DNA of 64,000 nt from Escherichia coli. Lineage in GTDB: Bacteria; Pseudomonadota; Gammaproteobacteria; Enterobacterales; Enterobacteriaceae. The notes under the pieces are model-generated. The model saw nothing but the letters and a program-made list of their open reading frames with translations, had not been told where the DNA came from and did no database searches. Positions 17,351 through 64,000 of this stretch are shown here, in pieces. How positions within the stretch are numbered: the first letter of the stretch is position 1; each line of letters opens with the position of its first letter. The stretch lies in the NCBI RefSeq assembly GCF_013315695.1, contig NZ_CP054353.1; one strand, written 5' to 3'. A program made the translations under genes and the position numbers.

Positions 17351-17794
17351 ATGGCAGATATCACTCTTATCAGCGGCAGCACCCTCGGCGGTGCCGAATA
17401 TGTAGCAGAACACCTGGCTGAAAAGCTGGAAGAGGCGGGTTTTACCACCGAAACGCTGCACGGTCCGCTGTTGGAAGATTTATCTGCCTCTGGGATCTGG
17501 CTGGTTATCAGCTCAACCCACGGTGCCGGAGATATTCCGGACAACCTTTCTCCTTTCTATGAAGCATTGCAGAAACAGAAGCCCGATCTTTCTGCGGTCC
17601 GCTTTGGCGCAATCGGTATTGGTAGTCGTGAATATGACACCTTTTGTGGGGCTATTGATAAACTCGAGGCTGAACTCAAAAATTCCGGTGCAAAACAGAC
17701 GGGCGAAACACTGAAGATCAACATTCTTGATCACGACATTCCGGAAGATCCGGCAGAAGAATGGCTGGGATCGTGGATTAATTTACTCAAATAA
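17351..17794 (+). CDS. mioC: Flavodoxin-like FMN protein MioC (147 aa)
   Basis: Flavodoxin motif TLISGSTLGGAEYVAEH; ends 5 bp before oriC. Confidence 0.95.
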   Translation: MADITLISGSTLGGAEYVAEHLAEKLEEAGFTTETLHGPLLEDLSASGIWLVISSTHGAGDIPDNLSPFYEALQKQKPDLSAVRFGAIGIGSREYDTFCGAIDKLEAELKNSGAKQTGETLKINILDHDIPEDPAEEWLGSWINLLK

Positions 17795-17799
17795 GTATA

Positions 17800-18075
17800 C
17801 AGATCGTGCGATCCACTGTGGATAACTCTGTCAGGAAGCTTGGATCAACCGGTAGTTATCCAAAGAACAACGGTTGTTCAGTTTTTGAGTTGTGTATAAC
17901 CCCTCATTCTGATCCCAGCTTATACTGTCCAGGATCACCGATCATTCACAGTTAATGATCCTTTCCAGGTTGTTGATCTTAAAAGCCGGATCCTTGTTAT
18001 CCACAGGGCAGTGCGATCCTAATAAGAGATCACAATAGAACAGATCTCTAAATAAATAGATCTTCTTTTTAACAC
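17800..18075. other. Chromosomal replication origin oriC
   Basis: Matches the canonical E. coli oriC in reverse-complement orientation: DnaA box TGTGGATAA at 17817-17825 (R4), TTATCCACA at 17997-18005 (R1), three AT-rich 13-mers (18019-18031, 18034-18046, 18050-18062) and dense GATC sites. Confidence 0.95.
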
Positions 18076-18172
18076 CCAGGATCCCAGGTCTTTCTCAAGC
18101 CGACAAAGTTGAGTAGAATCCACGGCCCGGGCTTCAATCCATTTTCATACCGCGTTATGCGAGGCAATCACC

Positions 18173-56966: not shown

Positions 56967-57585
56967 GTTGGAGTCATTACCAGAAGAAAGAACCAAACAC
57001 GATCACAAAGGAGATAATCTTCAGCCCGAGGAACAATGAGGTAATACGACTGGCGGCTAACGAGCTTATCCACAATACGCTGGCAACGAAAATGGCTGTG
57101 CAGATCCCGACAATACGCGGATTAGCGTGATAGCCCAAATTCATTGATATTGTTTCACTAATGATCGCACCATTAGCAGAGATATAGGCATAAGTGAGGA
57201 TATAGAGAACGAAGGCAACGGTAATACCGCTGATAATGTTCCAGGTGTTACCGATTAAATCTTTGGTGATGGTGTTAAAACTGGAGCCGACAGGATAATT
57301 TAAATTTGCTTCTAATAACAATAACCCGGAATGAAGCATTGAAAACCAGGCAATGATAAGGATAAAGGCACCCCAGAAAAACCAGGCACCGGCAAGATCA
57401 ACAGGTAAAGCAAACATACCTCCACCAATTACTGTACCTGCTATAACCATAACACCCCAAAATGCAGAGTGCTTTTTTTCAGCTTGATCAGTCATGATGC
57501 CACCTTTAGAGGAAGGCTATTTTTGTTATTGAGGATGTAGGGTAAGAGAGTGGCTAACATCCTTATAGCCACTCTGTAGTATTAA

Positions 57586-59001
57586 TTAAACTTCTTTCAG
57601 TTTTGCGGTGAAGTGACGCAATACTTTCGGTTCGTAGGTAAAGGTTAACCCTTTAATATTCGCCGCGTTCTCTTTCACATGTTTGAAGGCTTCAATAATG
57701 AAGTCCATATGTGTTTGAGTATATGTTGCGCGCGGAATGGTTAAACGCAGCAGTTCAGCCGGGCATGGCAGTTGTTTACCGGTTTTCGGATCGCGGCCTA
57801 ACAGGAAAGAGCCAATTTCTACCGCACGGATACCGGCGACTTTATACAGCTCGCAGGCCAGCGCCTGTGCCGGGAACTGATCTGCCGGGATATGCGGCAG
57901 CAGTTTACCGGCATCAACGAATGCCGCGTGACCGCCCGCCTGCTGGCAGACAACGCCAATCTCTTCCAGACCATCGACCAGATACTGCACCTGCGCGATA
58001 CGATAAGCCAGCCAGTCCAGATTCATGCCGTCATACAGACCTACCGCCAGACGCTCCATCGCGCCGCCTTCCAGGCCGCCATATGTCGGGAAGCCTTCCT
58101 GTACCACGCAAAGGGTTCTGCACTCGGTGTACACATCAAAGAAGCTGTCGTCTTTCACGCACAGCAGGCCGCCCATCGGCACCATTGCATCTTTCTTGGC
58201 GGACATCGCCAGCATATCGGCATATTTGTAGGTTTCGCGGGTGATCTGCTCGATGGTCCAGTCTTTGTATTCTGCTTCACGCTGCTTGATGAAATAGGCG
58301 TTTTCGGCAAAGCGTGCGGAGTCCATGACCACCGGAATATCGTATTTCTTCGCGATGCTGTACATCGCTTTTAAGTTTGCCAGTGAAACCGGCTGACCAC
58401 CTGCGGAGTTACTGGTGATGGTTGCAACGATATACGGCACGTTATTCGGGCCAACTTCTTCAATACCGCGTTCTAATCCCTCAAGGTCAAAGTTGCCTTT
58501 AAAGTCGTAACGCACGCCAGTATCGAAGGCTTCTTTGATATAGACGTTACGCACGGTACAGCCGTTAATCTGGCTATGGCCCTGCGTGGTATCAAAGAAA
58601 TAGTTAGAGAACGCCACCATTTTGCTGCGATCCAGGCCTTTTTCCTGCTCGCGTTTTTTAATCAGTACCGGAATATAGATTTGTTCTGCGCCACGGCCCT
58701 GGTGAGTCGGAATGGTGTATTGATAACCAAAGATATTTTTCACTGACTCGGCTAACGCATAGTAGCTGCGGCTGCCGCTGTAGGCTTCGTCGCCGCGCAT
58801 CATCGCGGCCTGCATGCTCTGCGTCACCGCCCCGGTGCCGCTGTCGGTCAGTAAATCGATAAACACATCTTCGCTATCCAGCAGGAACGGGTTCATGCCG
58901 GATTTAATAATTGCCTCTTCACGGTAAGCGCGAGTCGTACGTTTTACTGGCTCAATAACACGAATGCGGAATGGTTCAGGGAGATGTTTAAAGTTTTCCA
59001 T
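57586..59001 (-). CDS. tnaA: Tryptophanase (471 aa from [11 protein letters not shown]...), intact
   Basis: Translation matches TnaA as I remember it; ORF-track start at 59016 is 5 codons upstream. Confidence 0.95.
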
Positions 59002-59221
59002 TACATAATCCTTCATTTATTTTAATTACAGTGATCCCTGTGAATATTACATCTGCAATATCCATTAATTCGCCAGATATATATGCAAGCACCATCATTT
59101 ACTAAAACAAGTAAATAAATGAGAGATGAGCTTTGCAAAAGGCAAAATTAAGATATAGCAAACAAATAGATCACATTGAATCTAATCGGTTTGGCTCTGG
59201 TGATGGCTACAGAAGGGCAAA

Positions 59222-59537: not shown

Positions 59538-60902
59538 TTACTTACCAATACAGAAGCTGGAGAAAATCCGCCCAAGCAGGTCGTCTGAAGTAAACTCCCC
59601 GGTGATTTCGCTTAAGTTCTGCTGCGCCAGGCGCAACTCTTCCGCCAGCAGTTCACCCGCCCAGGCACCCAACAGTTGCGCTTTACCTTGCTGCAAATGC
59701 TCTGCCGCCTGTTCCAGCGCCTGTAGGTGACGACGACGCGCCAGGAAGCCGCCTTCCATATTGGTGTCAAAGCCCATGCTCTGTTTGAGATGGTTACGCA
59801 GCACATCCACGCCTTCGCCAGTCCGCGCCGAAAGACGAATTAACGCATGACCGTTCACTTCGCTCATCCCCAACGTTTCGCCGGTGATATCGGCTTTATT
59901 GCGCACCACGGTGATCGGCAGTTTCGCTGGCAGACGGGCGATAAATTCCGGCCAGATCTCTGCCGGATCAACGGCGTCTGTCGTGGTGCCATCGACCATA
60001 AACAGCACGCGGTCGGCCTGTTCAATTTCCTGCCACGCGCGCTCGATACCAATACGTTCCACTTCGTCACTGGCTTCACGTAGCCCGGCGGTATCGATGA
60101 TATGCAGCGGCATTCCGTCAATGTGGATATGCTCACGCAGCACGTCACGCGTGGTTCCGGCGATATCGGTTACGATTGCCGCTTCACGGCCCGCCAGCGC
60201 GTTTAACAGGCTCGATTTACCGGCGTTAGGACGTCCGGCAATCACCACTTTCATCCCTTCGCGCAACAAACTACCCTGACGTGCTTCAGCACGCACTGCA
60301 TCAAGATCGGCAATAACGTCATTGAGCTGGGCTTCAATTTTGCCGTCGGAGAGGAAATCGATCTCTTCATCCGGGAAATCAATTGCCGCTTCGACGTAAA
60401 TGCGCAAGTGGGTGAGGGCTTCCACCAGATGGTTGACCCGTGCGGAGAATGCGCCTTGCAGCGAGTTTAGCGCCGAACGGGCCGCCTGTTCCGAGCTGGC
60501 GTCGATAAGATCCGCAATCGCCTCGGCCTGGGCTAAGTCGAGTTTATCGTTCAGAAATGCGCGTTCGGAAAACTCACCAGGGCGGGCAATCCGCAGGCCG
60601 GGAATGGTCAGAATGCGTTTTAACAGCAGGTCGAGGATCACCGGACCGCCATGACCTTGCAGTTCCAGCACATCTTCGCCGGTGAACGAGTTCGGGCCAG
60701 GGAACCATAGCGCAATCCCCTGATCGAGCACGCTGCCGTCGGCGTCTTTAAACGGAAGATAATCGGCGTAGCGCGGCTTTGGCAGTTTACCCAGCACGGT
60801 TTCGGCAACCTCACGGGCTTTGAGGCCGGAGATGCGCAGGATGCCAACGCCGCCACGTCCCGGAGGCGTGGCCTGGGCTACGATAGTGTCATTATCGCTC
60901 AT
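59538..60902 (-). CDS. mnmE: tRNA modification GTPase MnmE (454 aa)
   Basis: G-domain motifs [14 protein letters not shown]-terminal CIGK. Confidence 0.95.
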
Positions 60903-61007: not shown

Positions 61008-62654
61008 TCAGGATTTTTTCTTCTCGCGGCTATGCAGGCCACGTTTTTCCAGACCACGGTAAATCAGCTGCTGCTGAATAATGGTTACCAGGTTGCTGAC
61101 GATATAGTACAGCACCAGACCTGACGGGAACCACAGGAAGAACACGGTGAAGATGACCGGCATAAAGGTCATGATCTTCTGCTGCATCGGGTCGGTCACG
61201 GTGGTCGGCGACATCTTCTGAATGAAGAACATCGTTACGCCCATCAGGATCGGCAGGATGTAGTACGGGTCCTGTGCAGACAGGTCGTGGATCCACAGTG
61301 CAAACGGTGCCTGACGCAGTTCAACGGAACCCATCAGCATGTAGTACAACGCCAGGAAGATTGGCATCTGGATCAGCAGCGGGAAGCAGCCGCCCAGCGG
61401 GTTAACCTTCTCAGCTTTGTACAGCGCCATCATTTCCTGACTGATACGCTGTTTGTCATCGCCCAGACGCTCACGCATTGCCTGAATCTTCGGCTGCAGC
61501 ATACGCATCTTCGCCATGGAGGTGTACTGCGCTTTGGTCAGCGGGTACATGATGCCACGAACGATAAAGGTGATGATGATAATGGAGAAGCCCCAGTTAC
61601 CCACAAAGCTATGGATCCATTTCAGCAGTTTGAACAGCGGCTGAGAGATGAACCACAACCAACCGTAATCAACGGTCAGATCCAGGTGCGGAGCAACAGC
61701 TGCCATTTTGTCCTGGATTTCCGGGCCAACCCACAGGGTGCTGTTCATCGCGCCAGTCTGACCTGGCTGAACCAGTACCGGCTGAGATTTATAGCCGATA
61801 GCGGCGATGCCATTACCCAGATTAGCGGTGTAGAAGTTGTTGGTACCGTCGTTATGCGGGATCCACGCCGTCGCGAAATACTGTTGCAGCATCGCCACCC
61901 AACCACCTTTCGAAGAGATGTTCAGGTTTTCGTTATCGGCAATGGTATCGAACTTGTATTTCTCGTACTTCTCGTCAGGCGTGGAGTACGCCGCGCCACG
62001 GAAGGTGTGCAGTGCGAAGTTGCTGCTTCCGGTATCGAGATGCGGTGGCAGAGTGATGGATTGCTTCAACTGACCAAAGGTGGAGATTTCCAGCGGTTTC
62101 TCGCCAGCGTTCTGCACGTTGTAGTTGACGTTGACAGCGTAATCACCACGTTTCAGGACAAACGTTTTGGTAAACGTGTTGCCTGCCGCGTCGGTATACG
62201 TCATCGGCACCTGCAGTTCGTTTTGACCTTCAGCCAGCACATAAGCGTCTTTTTCAACGTTATACAGCGGACGCGGGCCGTTAGCCGGGTTATCCGGGCC
62301 ATCACGACCGGTCAGACCGCTCTGTGCCTGATAAATAAACTGCGGTGAAGTTTCCAGCAGCTGGAACGGCTGGGTAGAGTTCAGCTCTTTCGGGTAAGCA
62401 GGCAGCAGAGCTTGCTCAACATCACCACCACGGGTGTTGATGGTCAGATCAAGCACGTCGGTCTTAACCGAGATCAGTTTCCCCTGGCCACTGGCCGGTA
62501 CGCCCTGGTCGGCGGCGCTACCCGCTGCGGTGGTCGTTGTCTGCGTGGTCTGTTGGGCCTGAGGTTGCGGGTTTTTATCCTGCTCCCAGGCTTGCCAGAT
62601 CATGAAAGACACGAACAGCAAAGCGATGACTAAAAGATTGCGTTGCGAATCCAT
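61008..62654 (-). CDS. yidC: Membrane protein insertase YidC (548 aa)
   Basis: N-terminal TM, large periplasmic domain, conserved C-terminal 5-TM core. Confidence 0.95.
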
Positions 62655-62656
62655 CG

Positions 62657-62914
62657 TTAGTGTTCTCTGGTATCAAATGGTCCGGGCGGGACGGGATCGT
62701 CACCACCAGGGTGTAAAGGGTGGCATTTTAATACGCGTTTCACCGTCAACCAACTGCCTTTTATCACTCCAAACCTGCGCAATGCCTCAATTCCGTAGCT
62801 TGAACAGGTTGGAGTGAAACGACAATGCGGCCCGAGTAGCGGACTAATCAGGCGTTGATAGACCCGAATGAGGGCTATCAGGACCCGCGAGCCAGGCGAC
62901 AGTGGCGGCGCCAT
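62657..62914 (-). CDS. yidD: Membrane protein insertion efficiency factor YidD (85 aa)
   Basis: Conserved small protein between rnpA and yidC. Confidence 0.85.
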
Positions 62915-63237
62915 AATTTTTCCAACGCTTCCGAGAGAGCACGGTTATCGAGGTCGGCAACCCCTTTTTTCGCCACCACCACGAAATCCATAGCCGGGAG
63001 TTCATGTTGGCGCAGACGGAAGCTTTCACGCGTCAGACGTTTAATCCGATTGCGTTCATGGGCGCGTCGAACGTTTTTCTTGGCGACTGTAAGACCGATA
63101 CGGGGATGCCCCAGCGAATTCAGGCGGCCGAGAATGGTAATTTGCGGCGTGCCAGCCCGTTGTGGCTGCTGGAAGACGAATGTGAATTGACTGGGAGTTA
63201 ACAAGCGTAACTCCCTGGGAAATGCGAGCTTAACCAC
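62878..63237 (-). CDS. rnpA: RNase P protein component RnpA (119 aa)
   Basis: Basic 119-aa protein ([29 protein letters not shown]...). Confidence 0.95.
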
Positions 63238-63253
63238 TCAGGGGTTAGCTTTA

Positions 63254-63406
<153 letters not shown>

Positions 63407-63639
63407 CTAAACTTGAATAAATTCAATGGCTTTATTGGATATCCGCCGAAAAATGAAACGATGGACACCGAAGCCATGGGTGATTAAAGAGGCCGGATTG
63501 TAATAATTGTACACTCCGGAGTCAATTCTCTTTCCTTATTTACCGCGCTTTTCCGCACCTTTTCGCGGGGAAAACGTACGGCCTCACACCAGTGAAAACC
63601 AGCATGGCGCGCCGGGTGGAGGATTATACGGGCTGACGG

Positions 63640-64000
63640 GTAAAGCGCAAGGATCGTCCTGGATCTTTATTAGATCGATTAAGCCAATTTTTGTCTATGG
63701 TCATTAAATTTTCCAATATGCGGCGTAAATCGTGCCCGGCCCGCGGCAGGATCGTTTACACTTAGCGAGTTCTGGAAAGTCCTGTGGATAAATCGGGAAA
63801 ATCTGTGAGAAACAGAAGATCTCTTGCGCAGTTTAGGCTATGATCCGCGGTCCCGATCGTTTTGCAGGATCTTGATCGGGCATATAACCGCAGACAGCGG
63901 TTCGTGCGTCACCCTCATGCAGGGTCTTTTCGACGTACGTCAACAATCATGAATGTTTCAGCCTTAGTCATTATCGACTTTTGTTCGAGTGGAGTCCGCC
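63640..64000 (+). promoter_or_regulatory. dnaA promoter region (dnaA CDS begins just beyond the window end)
   Basis: DnaA box TGTGGATAA at 63783-63791 and at least 8 GATC sites in about 240 bp; the window ends with GTTCGAGTGGAGTCCGCC, which I recall as the bases immediately preceding the dnaA GTG start. Confidence 0.75.

Follow-up and report, generated by a model that had tools for sequence, protein, structure and literature searches.

The dnaA promoter region of Escherichia coli at a window edge: Dam sites, DnaA boxes and a likely conserved structure in the dnaA leader

The promoter region of dnaA in Escherichia coli K-12, with its two promoters dnaAp1 and dnaAp2, was reportedly described by Hansen et al. 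in 1982. E. coli carries dam and seqA, and neither gene lies within the DNA analysed here, a stretch of 64,000 nucleotides from this species that is referred to below as the window. The dnaA promoter holds "9 GATC sites within 225 bp" (PMC5835720, Hansen and Atlung 2018); one GATC lies in the -10 and one in the -35 element of p2, the CCGCGG "Travers box" discriminator is found immediately 5' of the p2 +1 position, and methylation doubles the activity of p2 (PMC5835720). A DnaA box located between p1 and p2 is needed for autoregulation (PMC5835720; PMC8203912), further low-affinity boxes have been reported between this box 1 and p2 (PMC5835720; PMC4585315), and AGATCT is a box specific for DnaA-ATP and required for full repression (PMC8203912). 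DnaA binds and represses both promoters, full repression being dependent on DnaA-ATP (PMC5835720; PMC4585315; PMC8203912). SeqA binds closely spaced hemimethylated GATCs situated on about the same helical face (PMC2691817; PMC5835720), and the dnaA region is hemimethylated, with SeqA sequestering it, for about one-fifth of a generation (PMC5835720); according to the same review, the delayed remethylation of the dnaA promoter and its SeqA dependence go back to Campbell and Kleckner (1990) and Lu et al. (1994). Fis, IciA/ArgP, ppGpp, SeqA and methylation have been listed among the other inputs (Menikpurage et al., PMC8203912). Translation of the dnaA mRNA starts at GUG from a weak ribosome-binding site (GGAG) and yields about one protein per transcript, and the mRNA belongs to the 1% with the shortest half-lives (PMC5835720).

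The region between rpmH and dnaA

Towards its end the window carries a run of minus-strand genes, which the ORF listing gives as tnaA (57586-59016), mnmE (59538-60902), yidC (61008-62654), yidD (62657-62914), rnpA (62878-63237) and rpmH (63254-63394). The last of these is the divergent neighbour of dnaA and forms the upstream bound of the intergenic region, and the stretch between rpmH and the end of the window, 606 bp in length, is non-coding. Segment 63200-64000 was matched in 5,424 of the 5,426 complete E. coli genomes, in many of them at 100% identity. In one such genome, that of strain SMS-3-5 (NC_010498.1, 100% identical over 63200-64000), dnaA starts at the equivalent of window position 64001 and is followed by dnaN and recF. 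The sequence at this junction reads ...GAGTGGAGTCCGCC up to the last base of the window and GTGTCACTTTCG directly beyond it, and the 467-codon translation that opens with the GTG at 64001 is DnaA. The preliminary description of this DNA, which had placed the dnaA coding sequence just outside the window and proposed to extend the sequence in order to confirm it, was thus correct to the base in the 100%-identical genomes: the extension, made by way of the identical genome, runs into the GTG-initiated dnaA and on through dnaN and recF, and dnaA is not missing from the genome. In many RefSeq records the match stops at the last base of the record. Probably, then, the window is the end portion of a chromosome record that had been rotated to put dnaA first, which would explain why the gene lies just beyond the edge. 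In the O103 strain WL1467 the match breaks inside the region and dnaA is annotated as a pseudogene across the record origin; this case was set aside as most likely an assembly junction artefact.

Comparison with K-12 MG1655 leaves little room for difference. The locus and its neighbours are the same, 598 of the 606 intergenic bases are identical, and all nine GATCs, box 1, AGATCT, TATGAT and CCGCGG are unchanged. Only eight strain-level SNPs separate the two sequences (63567, 63575, 63581, 63595, 63637, 63739, 63741 and 63918), and they leave every GATC, the box and the promoter hexamers untouched; one alters codon 23 of the small ORF ysdD (His to Arg) and another sits in the loop of the predicted leader hairpin H2. 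The published elements (nine GATCs, the box, the GATCs of p2, CCGCGG and AGATCT) all map onto the window one-to-one, and nothing contradicting the identification as the dnaA promoter was found. The flagged feature is the E. coli dnaA promoter itself, which is already known, and every feature that defines it at the sequence level is present. We hold it as almost certain that 63640-64000 is the regulatory region of the dnaA-dnaN-recF operon of E. coli, between the divergent rpmH and dnaA genes. The elements of the intergenic region upstream of the leader hairpins, together with its two borders, are as follows.

63254-63394, minus strand: rpmH (ribosomal protein L34), an ORF of 46 aa, annotated rpmH in identical records
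63623-63650, minus strand: TTGCGC (63650-63645), a 16-bp spacer and TATAAT (63628-63623), directed toward rpmH, with the -35 abutting GATC 1
63624-63704, minus strand: ysdD small ORF (26 aa, MTIDKNWLNRSNKDPGRSLRFTRQPV), overlapping GATC 1-3; ysdD/b4757 in K-12
63652-63676, no strand: upstream GATC sub-cluster of three sites (63652, 63662, 63673), at intervals of 10 and 11 bp (roughly a helical turn)
63701-63720, no strand: conserved block TCATTAAATTTTCCAATATG, 20 bp, with a column identity of 0.91-0.95 vs a regional mean of 0.77
63750-63762, plus strand: GATC 4 (63750-63753), then the -10-like TACACT (63757-63762), the putative dnaA p1, upstream of the DnaA box
63783-63791, minus strand: DnaA box 1, a perfect match to the consensus TTATCCACA, reading TGTGGATAA on the plus strand
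63804-63812, minus strand: candidate weak DnaA box TTTCTCACA, reading TGTGAGAAA on the plus strand, with three mismatches, 21 bp past box 1
63817-63822, no strand: AGATCT, the ATP-DnaA box motif, which holds GATC 5 (63818) at the p2 -35 position, 17 bp before TATGAT
63839-63850, plus strand: dnaA p2 core, with the -10 TATGAT (63839-63844), the overlapping GATC 6 (63842-63845) and CCGCGG (63845-63850)
63855-63877, no strand: GATC sites 7-9 (63855, 63868, 63874), within the first 26 nt of the predicted p2 transcript
63991-64000, plus strand: Shine-Dalgarno GGAG (63991-63994) and spacer, with the dnaA GTG next, at 64001

Promoters, DnaA boxes and the GATC cluster

The transcription starts were deduced from the hexamers and from the wording of the review. 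On this basis p2 transcription would start at about 63852, giving a leader of about 149 nt. TACACT is read as the -10 of p1 because it lies upstream of the DnaA box, as PMC5835720 requires for p1; a -35 of p1 is not recognisable in the sequence. Box 1 is thus flanked by TACACT 21 bp upstream and TATGAT 48 bp downstream, if these hexamers are the promoter elements that they appear to be. A cloning primer designated for 'dnaA including dnaA1p and dnaA2p' maps to 63681-63700, in agreement with a location of both promoters downstream of it. The 9-mer at 63804-63812 may be one of the named weak boxes of the literature. In the whole window TTATNCACA occurs seven times, vs 2.2 +/- 1.5 expected.

The GATC sites start at 63652, 63662, 63673, 63750, 63818, 63842, 63855, 63868 and 63874, i.e. 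nine sites in 226 bp (63652-63877) where about 1.2 are expected per 240 bp, which makes the initial count of at least eight in about 240 bp slightly conservative; the DnaA box named alongside it is indeed present, in perfect form. The Poisson probability of at least nine GATCs in 240 bp is 4.9e-6, or about 1.3e-3 after correction for the number of windows, and in the 64 kb this cluster is second in density only to oriC. Successive sites are 10, 11, 77, 68, 24, 13, 13 and 6 bp apart, close enough, judged by sequence, for cooperative binding of SeqA; the intervals of 10, 11, 24, 13, 13 and 6 bp would suit cooperative binding of SeqA dimers on one helical face.

Species-representative genomes were scanned for the DnaA motif ELPATEFSMW by means of a degenerate DNA pattern, which yielded 120 loci. 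In the Enterobacterales (76 loci) the median is nine GATCs per 400 bp upstream of dnaA vs 1.7 in the flanks, and the upstream count is the higher one in 75 of 75 loci (Wilcoxon p = 5e-14, a value that overstates independence given the shared ancestry). In the Vibrionaceae (32 loci) the corresponding medians are 7.5 and 1.8, the upstream count exceeding the flanks in 30 of 30 loci (Wilcoxon p = 2e-9, again overstating the independence of related species). Across these 76 and 32 species the GATC density upstream of dnaA is four to five times that of the flanks, and no other 4-bp palindrome is enriched there (mean 8.4 for GATC vs at most 2.5 for the others). Nearly all of the 76 Enterobacterales loci have TGTGGATAA in the same orientation ahead of the gene, and TATGATC also occurs upstream of dnaA in these 76 loci. 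Two genomes of the Agarivorans group have two inverted boxes and 0-1 GATC, and two insect endosymbionts have lost most GATCs, one of them the box as well.

The positions of the individual sites are conserved too. The window was aligned with 22 Enterobacteriaceae-type loci, including two from Escherichia and three from Citrobacter (mean column identity 0.77). GATC sites 1 to 9 are conserved in 21, 20, 22, 22, 22, 22, 19, 19 and 5 of these loci, respectively, so that eight of the nine are kept in position in at least 19 of 22, the exception being 63874. Box 1, AGATCT, TATGAT and TACACT are each identical in 22/22 loci and CCGCGG in 20/22, and the stretch 63781-63822, which includes the candidate weak box, is almost invariant. 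The individual sites are under purifying selection.

The rpmH side of the region holds further elements, and neither ysdD nor the two leader hairpins (63886-63939) were mentioned in the preliminary description. In identical records the ysdD ORF is annotated as a hypothetical protein. Only E. albertii, Citrobacter and a few others retain the frame; a premature stop, a lost ATG or a frameshift has removed it in 13 of the 22 other loci. No experimental basis for ysdD was found in the main text of one ribosome-profiling preprint, and the other literature matches were irrelevant. TTGCGC and TATAAT are kept across the 22 loci with a variable spacer and probably form a distal rpmH promoter; a consensus promoter scan did not call this pair, the -35 of which matches the consensus at three of six positions. 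The conserved block at 63701-63720 might be a regulator site, or might serve p1 as an UP-like element.

What maintains the GATCs deserves closer consideration. They may be kept as parts of other elements (ysdD, AGATCT at the p2 -35, the p2 -10 and a hairpin at the 5' end of the leader) and not for sequestration by SeqA. Sites 1-3 do lie in ysdD, site 5 in AGATCT and site 6 in TATGATC; the E. coli sites 7-9 can pair as a 5' hairpin, CCCGAUCG..CGAUCGGG, and sites 7 and 9 are paired with each other in the MFE fold. A direct effect of methylation on p2 (PMC5835720) and the binding of DnaA-ATP at AGATCT (PMC8203912) have been described as well. However, coding constraint on ysdD was rejected as the cause of the conservation of GATC 1-3, because these sites are kept in 20-22 of 22 loci although 13 have lost the frame. 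The Vibrionaceae, with a differently organised promoter, still have 6-10 GATCs, and motif overlap accounts for at most two or three sites and not for the density. The SeqA-dependent delay in remethylation, known to us through the review cited above, also speaks against this reading, and dual roles of GATCs are compatible with sequestration, not exclusive of it. We consider it improbable that other elements explain the cluster, and maintenance for SeqA sequestration is preferred. The idea that the cluster is a chance or compositional accident without its own function can be given practically no credence: GATC is indeed over-represented window-wide (320 vs 248 +/- 13 expected, one per 200 bp) and clusters have many opportunities to arise in 64 kb, but at least nine sites per 240 bp arose in only 19 of 2,000 random placements of 320 sites, a conservative test in that this total is inflated by both real clusters, local composition predicts 1.4 GATCs in the 361 bp of 63640-64000, where every other 4-bp palindrome has at most two copies, upstream enrichment is seen in 105/105 testable loci of Enterobacterales and Vibrionaceae, and the positional conservation of eight of nine sites refutes it.

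The preliminary description had taken the region for the known architecture of SeqA sequestration and DnaA autoregulation, and the window does match the published E. coli elements (PMC5835720; PMC8203912) of what is the characterised K-12 dnaA promoter region. The binding of DnaA and SeqA, the methylation kinetics, the start sites and the promoter strengths are taken here from the literature, and the anatomy, identity and conservation from the sequence. According to this scheme, p1 and the stronger p2 would flank box 1, with weaker DnaA sites following, among them AGATCT at the p2 -35; DnaA, chiefly as DnaA-ATP, would occupy these sites and repress both promoters, and the initiator would limit its own synthesis. 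A fork would reach dnaA about 1 minute after initiation, oriC being about 46 kb away, and would leave the GATCs hemimethylated. SeqA bound to them would then keep both Dam and RNA polymerase away during a part of the cell cycle; new DnaA synthesis would be off just after initiation, and both promoters would be silent until remethylation by Dam. Full methylation would restore p2, about twice as active when methylated, and the CCGCGG discriminator would make p2 responsive to ppGpp and growth rate.

Paired elements in the dnaA leader

Downstream of the last GATC, at 63886-63939 (3,883,791-3,883,844 in K-12), the leader contains two predicted hairpins, for which the figures below refer to the cells of the alignment described next.

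63886-63902, plus strand: H1, AACCGC-AGACA-GCGGUU, present in MFE folds; 87% of cells paired; five of six pairs changed on both sides
63903-63939, plus strand: H2, with the outer stem CGUGCGUC/GACGUACG; 84.6% of cells paired; seven of eight pairs changed on both sides

The interior of H2 in E. coli is ACCCU-CAUGC-AGGGU with a U-rich internal loop. The pairs of the E. coli structure were projected on a MAFFT alignment of 73 leaders built without structural input. Standard pairs fill 85.7% of the cells vs 22-48% when the partners are slid by 1-3 columns. Twelve of the 14 pairs are changed on both sides, which was reached in 2 of 500 shuffles; there are 80 doubly changed cells vs 23.6 +/- 5.4 in shuffles (0/500), and the covariation score is 0.319 vs 0.218 in shuffles (0/500) and at most 0.128 in the slid controls. 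Seven fully paired variants of H1 occur, including AAUUGC/GCAAUU, AACUGU/ACAGUU and CGCCAC/GUGGUG, and 17 distinct fully paired variants of the H2 stem. Single-sequence folds recover the H1+H2 architecture in most genera of four families, with stem sequences that differ. A covariance model derived from 36 leaders gives a single significant match in the 64-kb window, at 63883-63942 on the plus strand (63.7 bits), and also finds non-seed genera, namely Pantoea (eight loci), Rahnella, Trabulsiella, Pseudocitrobacter, Yersinia and Pectobacterium; it has no match in the Vibrionaceae, the Morganellaceae, Edwardsiella or the endosymbionts. RNAalifold returns the same 14 pairs on a compact alignment, which had been pre-selected for pairing, and no hairpins on the full, gappy 73-sequence alignment of 426 columns, where nothing beyond a trivial start-codon helix appears. 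The MFE of the leader as a whole is unexceptional (z = -0.53).

The symmetry at 63886-63939 might instead reside in the DNA (as a cruciform, or as dyads recognised by a dimeric regulator) or in an antisense transcript, and not in the dnaA mRNA. H1 is a perfect palindrome save for its loop, and IciA/ArgP and Fis have been reported on the dnaA promoter region (PMC8203912). Yet the arms change together as the sequence drifts, as seen in the sets of H1 and H2 variants, which is the signature of base pairing. Moreover, G.U combinations outnumber A.C in the stems by 128 to 29; G.U would be a mismatch on the opposite strand or in a cruciform, and the structure is therefore assigned to the dnaA sense RNA. 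The interior of H2 also differs in length between genera, about 9 nt being the shortest and about 70 nt the longest, with the outer stem retained, which does not favour a DNA-level dyad. We give little weight to a DNA-level or antisense origin, and it is likely that 63886-63939 forms a real conserved structure in the dnaA leader RNA.

Other kinds of leader element were looked for. No intrinsic terminator or attenuator was called on the plus strand of 63200-64000, and this function was ruled out for the leader, no G+C-rich stem-loop followed by a T run being present on that strand; the U-rich run after the inner stem of H2 is enclosed by the larger H2 helix, and genera with a short H2 lack it. 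An upstream ORF from the leader ATG at 63949, out of frame and overlapping the dnaA start, was likewise rejected, as Salmonella and six other loci have ATT in place of this ATG. A search of 63100-64000 against Rfam 15 at a permissive threshold returned no family and only one chance match, to a plant-virus element on the wrong strand (16.7 bits vs a gathering score of 100). Further downstream, 63981-64000 is nearly invariant across genera.

One might guess that H1 and H2, in combination with a conserved AU-rich single-stranded stretch just downstream, set the decay of the dnaA mRNA, which is very unstable, or its low translation. No structured E. coli dnaA leader was found in the literature within our reach, which did not extend to the older primary comparisons of enterobacterial upstream regions, and the 2018 review covers dnaA translation and mRNA stability with no hairpin mentioned (PMC5835720). 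It is conceivable, although we remain doubtful, that H1 and H2 constitute an undescribed cis-regulatory RNA element, covarying in the Enterobacteriaceae, Erwiniaceae, Yersiniaceae and Pectobacteriaceae, which sets the half-life or translation of the dnaA mRNA; both its novelty and its regulatory role are far less secure than the structure itself. If true, a post-transcriptional layer would be added to the control of the initiator in E. coli. The post-transcriptional tuning of DnaA synthesis is poorly understood in this species, and an RNA element that can be mutated would make it testable. The leader structure is the only possibly undescribed element here, the remainder of the region being ordinary.

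Comparison with other dnaA leaders, oriC and the Vibrionaceae

Leader-based control of dnaA was found in the literature only for Caulobacter, Sinorhizobium and Bacillus. In Caulobacter the 5' UTR and the nascent peptide take part in post-transcriptional control (PMC8443254), in Sinorhizobium the sRNA EcpR1 acts on the dnaA 5' region (PMC4414408), and in Bacillus an antisense RNA spans the dnaA 5' UTR (PMC12112137). In these bacteria the dnaA leader holds information beyond the promoter, which offers a possible analogy for H1 and H2; the analogy would be one of principle only, with no sequence or structural relationship to the E. coli hairpins.

For the Dam sites the obvious counterpart is oriC, which is found in the same window at about 17.7-18.1 kb, between mnmG and mioC and about 46 kb from the dnaA promoter; both SeqA-sequestered loci are thus present and correctly placed. 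Both combine dense GATCs with interleaved DnaA boxes, and for both a long-lasting, SeqA-dependent hemimethylation after passage of the fork has been reported (PMC5835720). In contrast to the dnaA region, oriC is denser (12 GATCs per 240 bp), has several consensus boxes (three copies of TTATNCACA) and unwinds to start replication, whereas the dnaA region, a promoter, undergoes sequestration over about 1/5 as against 1/3 of a generation (PMC5835720), with transcriptional silencing as the outcome.

Autoregulation by DnaA has also been reported for Vibrio harveyi, as cited in PMC8203912. The dnaA promoter of the Vibrionaceae is similar to that of E. coli in having a DnaA box, the 6-10 GATCs in 400 bp and AGATCT directly upstream of the gene. 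However, its layout differs: an inverted pair of boxes flanks AGATCT at about -115, with a series of GATCs after it, the 1.5 kb upstream yielded no rpmH, and nothing corresponding to H1/H2 was found. A GATC cluster with one or more DnaA boxes upstream of dnaA is thus common to the Enterobacterales and the Vibrionaceae, and the survey presented here puts numbers on it. Because the Vibrionaceae have both components in a different arrangement, the association of DnaA boxes with a cluster of Dam sites is older than the enterobacterial layout.

Conserved elements of the dnaA promoter and leader

Upstream of the inferred p1 promoter of dnaA, the intergenic region contains a 20-bp block, TCATTAAATTTTCCAATATG (63701-63720), whose conservation among Enterobacteriaceae genera reaches 91-95%; possible roles for this block are those of a regulator site or of a p1 UP-like element. 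At 63886-63955 (+ strand), the dnaA leader carries two covarying hairpins, H1 and H2, and, 3' of them, a strongly conserved AU-rich single-stranded stretch, GUCAACAAUCAUGAAU. The hairpins have no Rfam family and we found no description of them in the literature. The leader also includes an ATG at 63949 (+) that starts an out-of-frame ORF running over the dnaA start codon. Because ATT replaces this codon in Salmonella and six other loci, it is probably not a functional ORF start.

ysdD and elements of the rpmH strand

The opposite strand of the promoter region, that of rpmH, carries a small ORF and several promoter- or terminator-like elements:

63624-63704 (-), ysdD, small ORF of 26 aa (K-12 b4757), within the dnaA promoter region
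63650..63623 (-), promoter-like TTGCGC-16-TATAAT, conserved, within the 3' part of ysdD
63615..63599 (-), terminator-like hairpin, immediately downstream of TTGCGC-16-TATAAT
63525..63497 (-), promoter-like TTGACT-17-TACAAT

Both promoter-like elements (within 63497-63650) are directed at rpmH. The ysdD allele, annotated here as 'hypothetical protein', has Arg23 in place of His23, and the frame is broken in 13 of the 22 other Enterobacteriaceae-type loci examined; no experimental basis for ysdD was found in the literature.

oriC and its distance from dnaA

The densest GATC cluster of the window (17716-18083; 12 sites per 240 bp) contains three DnaA boxes:

17817 (-), DnaA box
17891 (-), DnaA box
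17997 (+), DnaA box

The cluster is flanked by mnmG and mioC and is therefore oriC. It lies ~46 kb from the dnaA start, as against ~42 kb in K-12; thus, this strain may have ~4 kb of additional DNA between the two. Another perfect TTATCCACA is found downstream of tnaA (57066-57074, +), probably within tnaB.

The dnaA upstream region in other genomes

In the complete genome of E. coli O103 WL1467 (L123, NZ_CP193491.1), the intergenic-region match breaks off 91 bp in, and the annotation lists dnaA as a pseudogene, truncated at the N terminus, that spans the record origin; both probably reflect an artefact introduced when this assembly was circularised. When considering 400 bp upstream of dnaA in L054, L100, L031 and L096 (Aliagarivorans, Agarivorans and two endosymbionts), the first two genera have two inverted DnaA boxes and only 0-1 GATC. 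Among the endosymbionts, Pantoea sp. Nvir has 2 GATCs and Ca. Steffania 4, the latter with no consensus DnaA box in these 400 bp. In Vibrionaceae (e.g. L004 and L119, among the compared loci L003-L122), an inverted DnaA-box pair surrounds AGATCT (TGTGAATAAcTTAGATCTTATTCAC) between roughly -125 and -90 relative to the dnaA start and is followed by several GATCs. The Vibrionaceae and E. coli dnaA regions thus share the same two ingredients, DnaA boxes and GATCs, but in a different arrangement.
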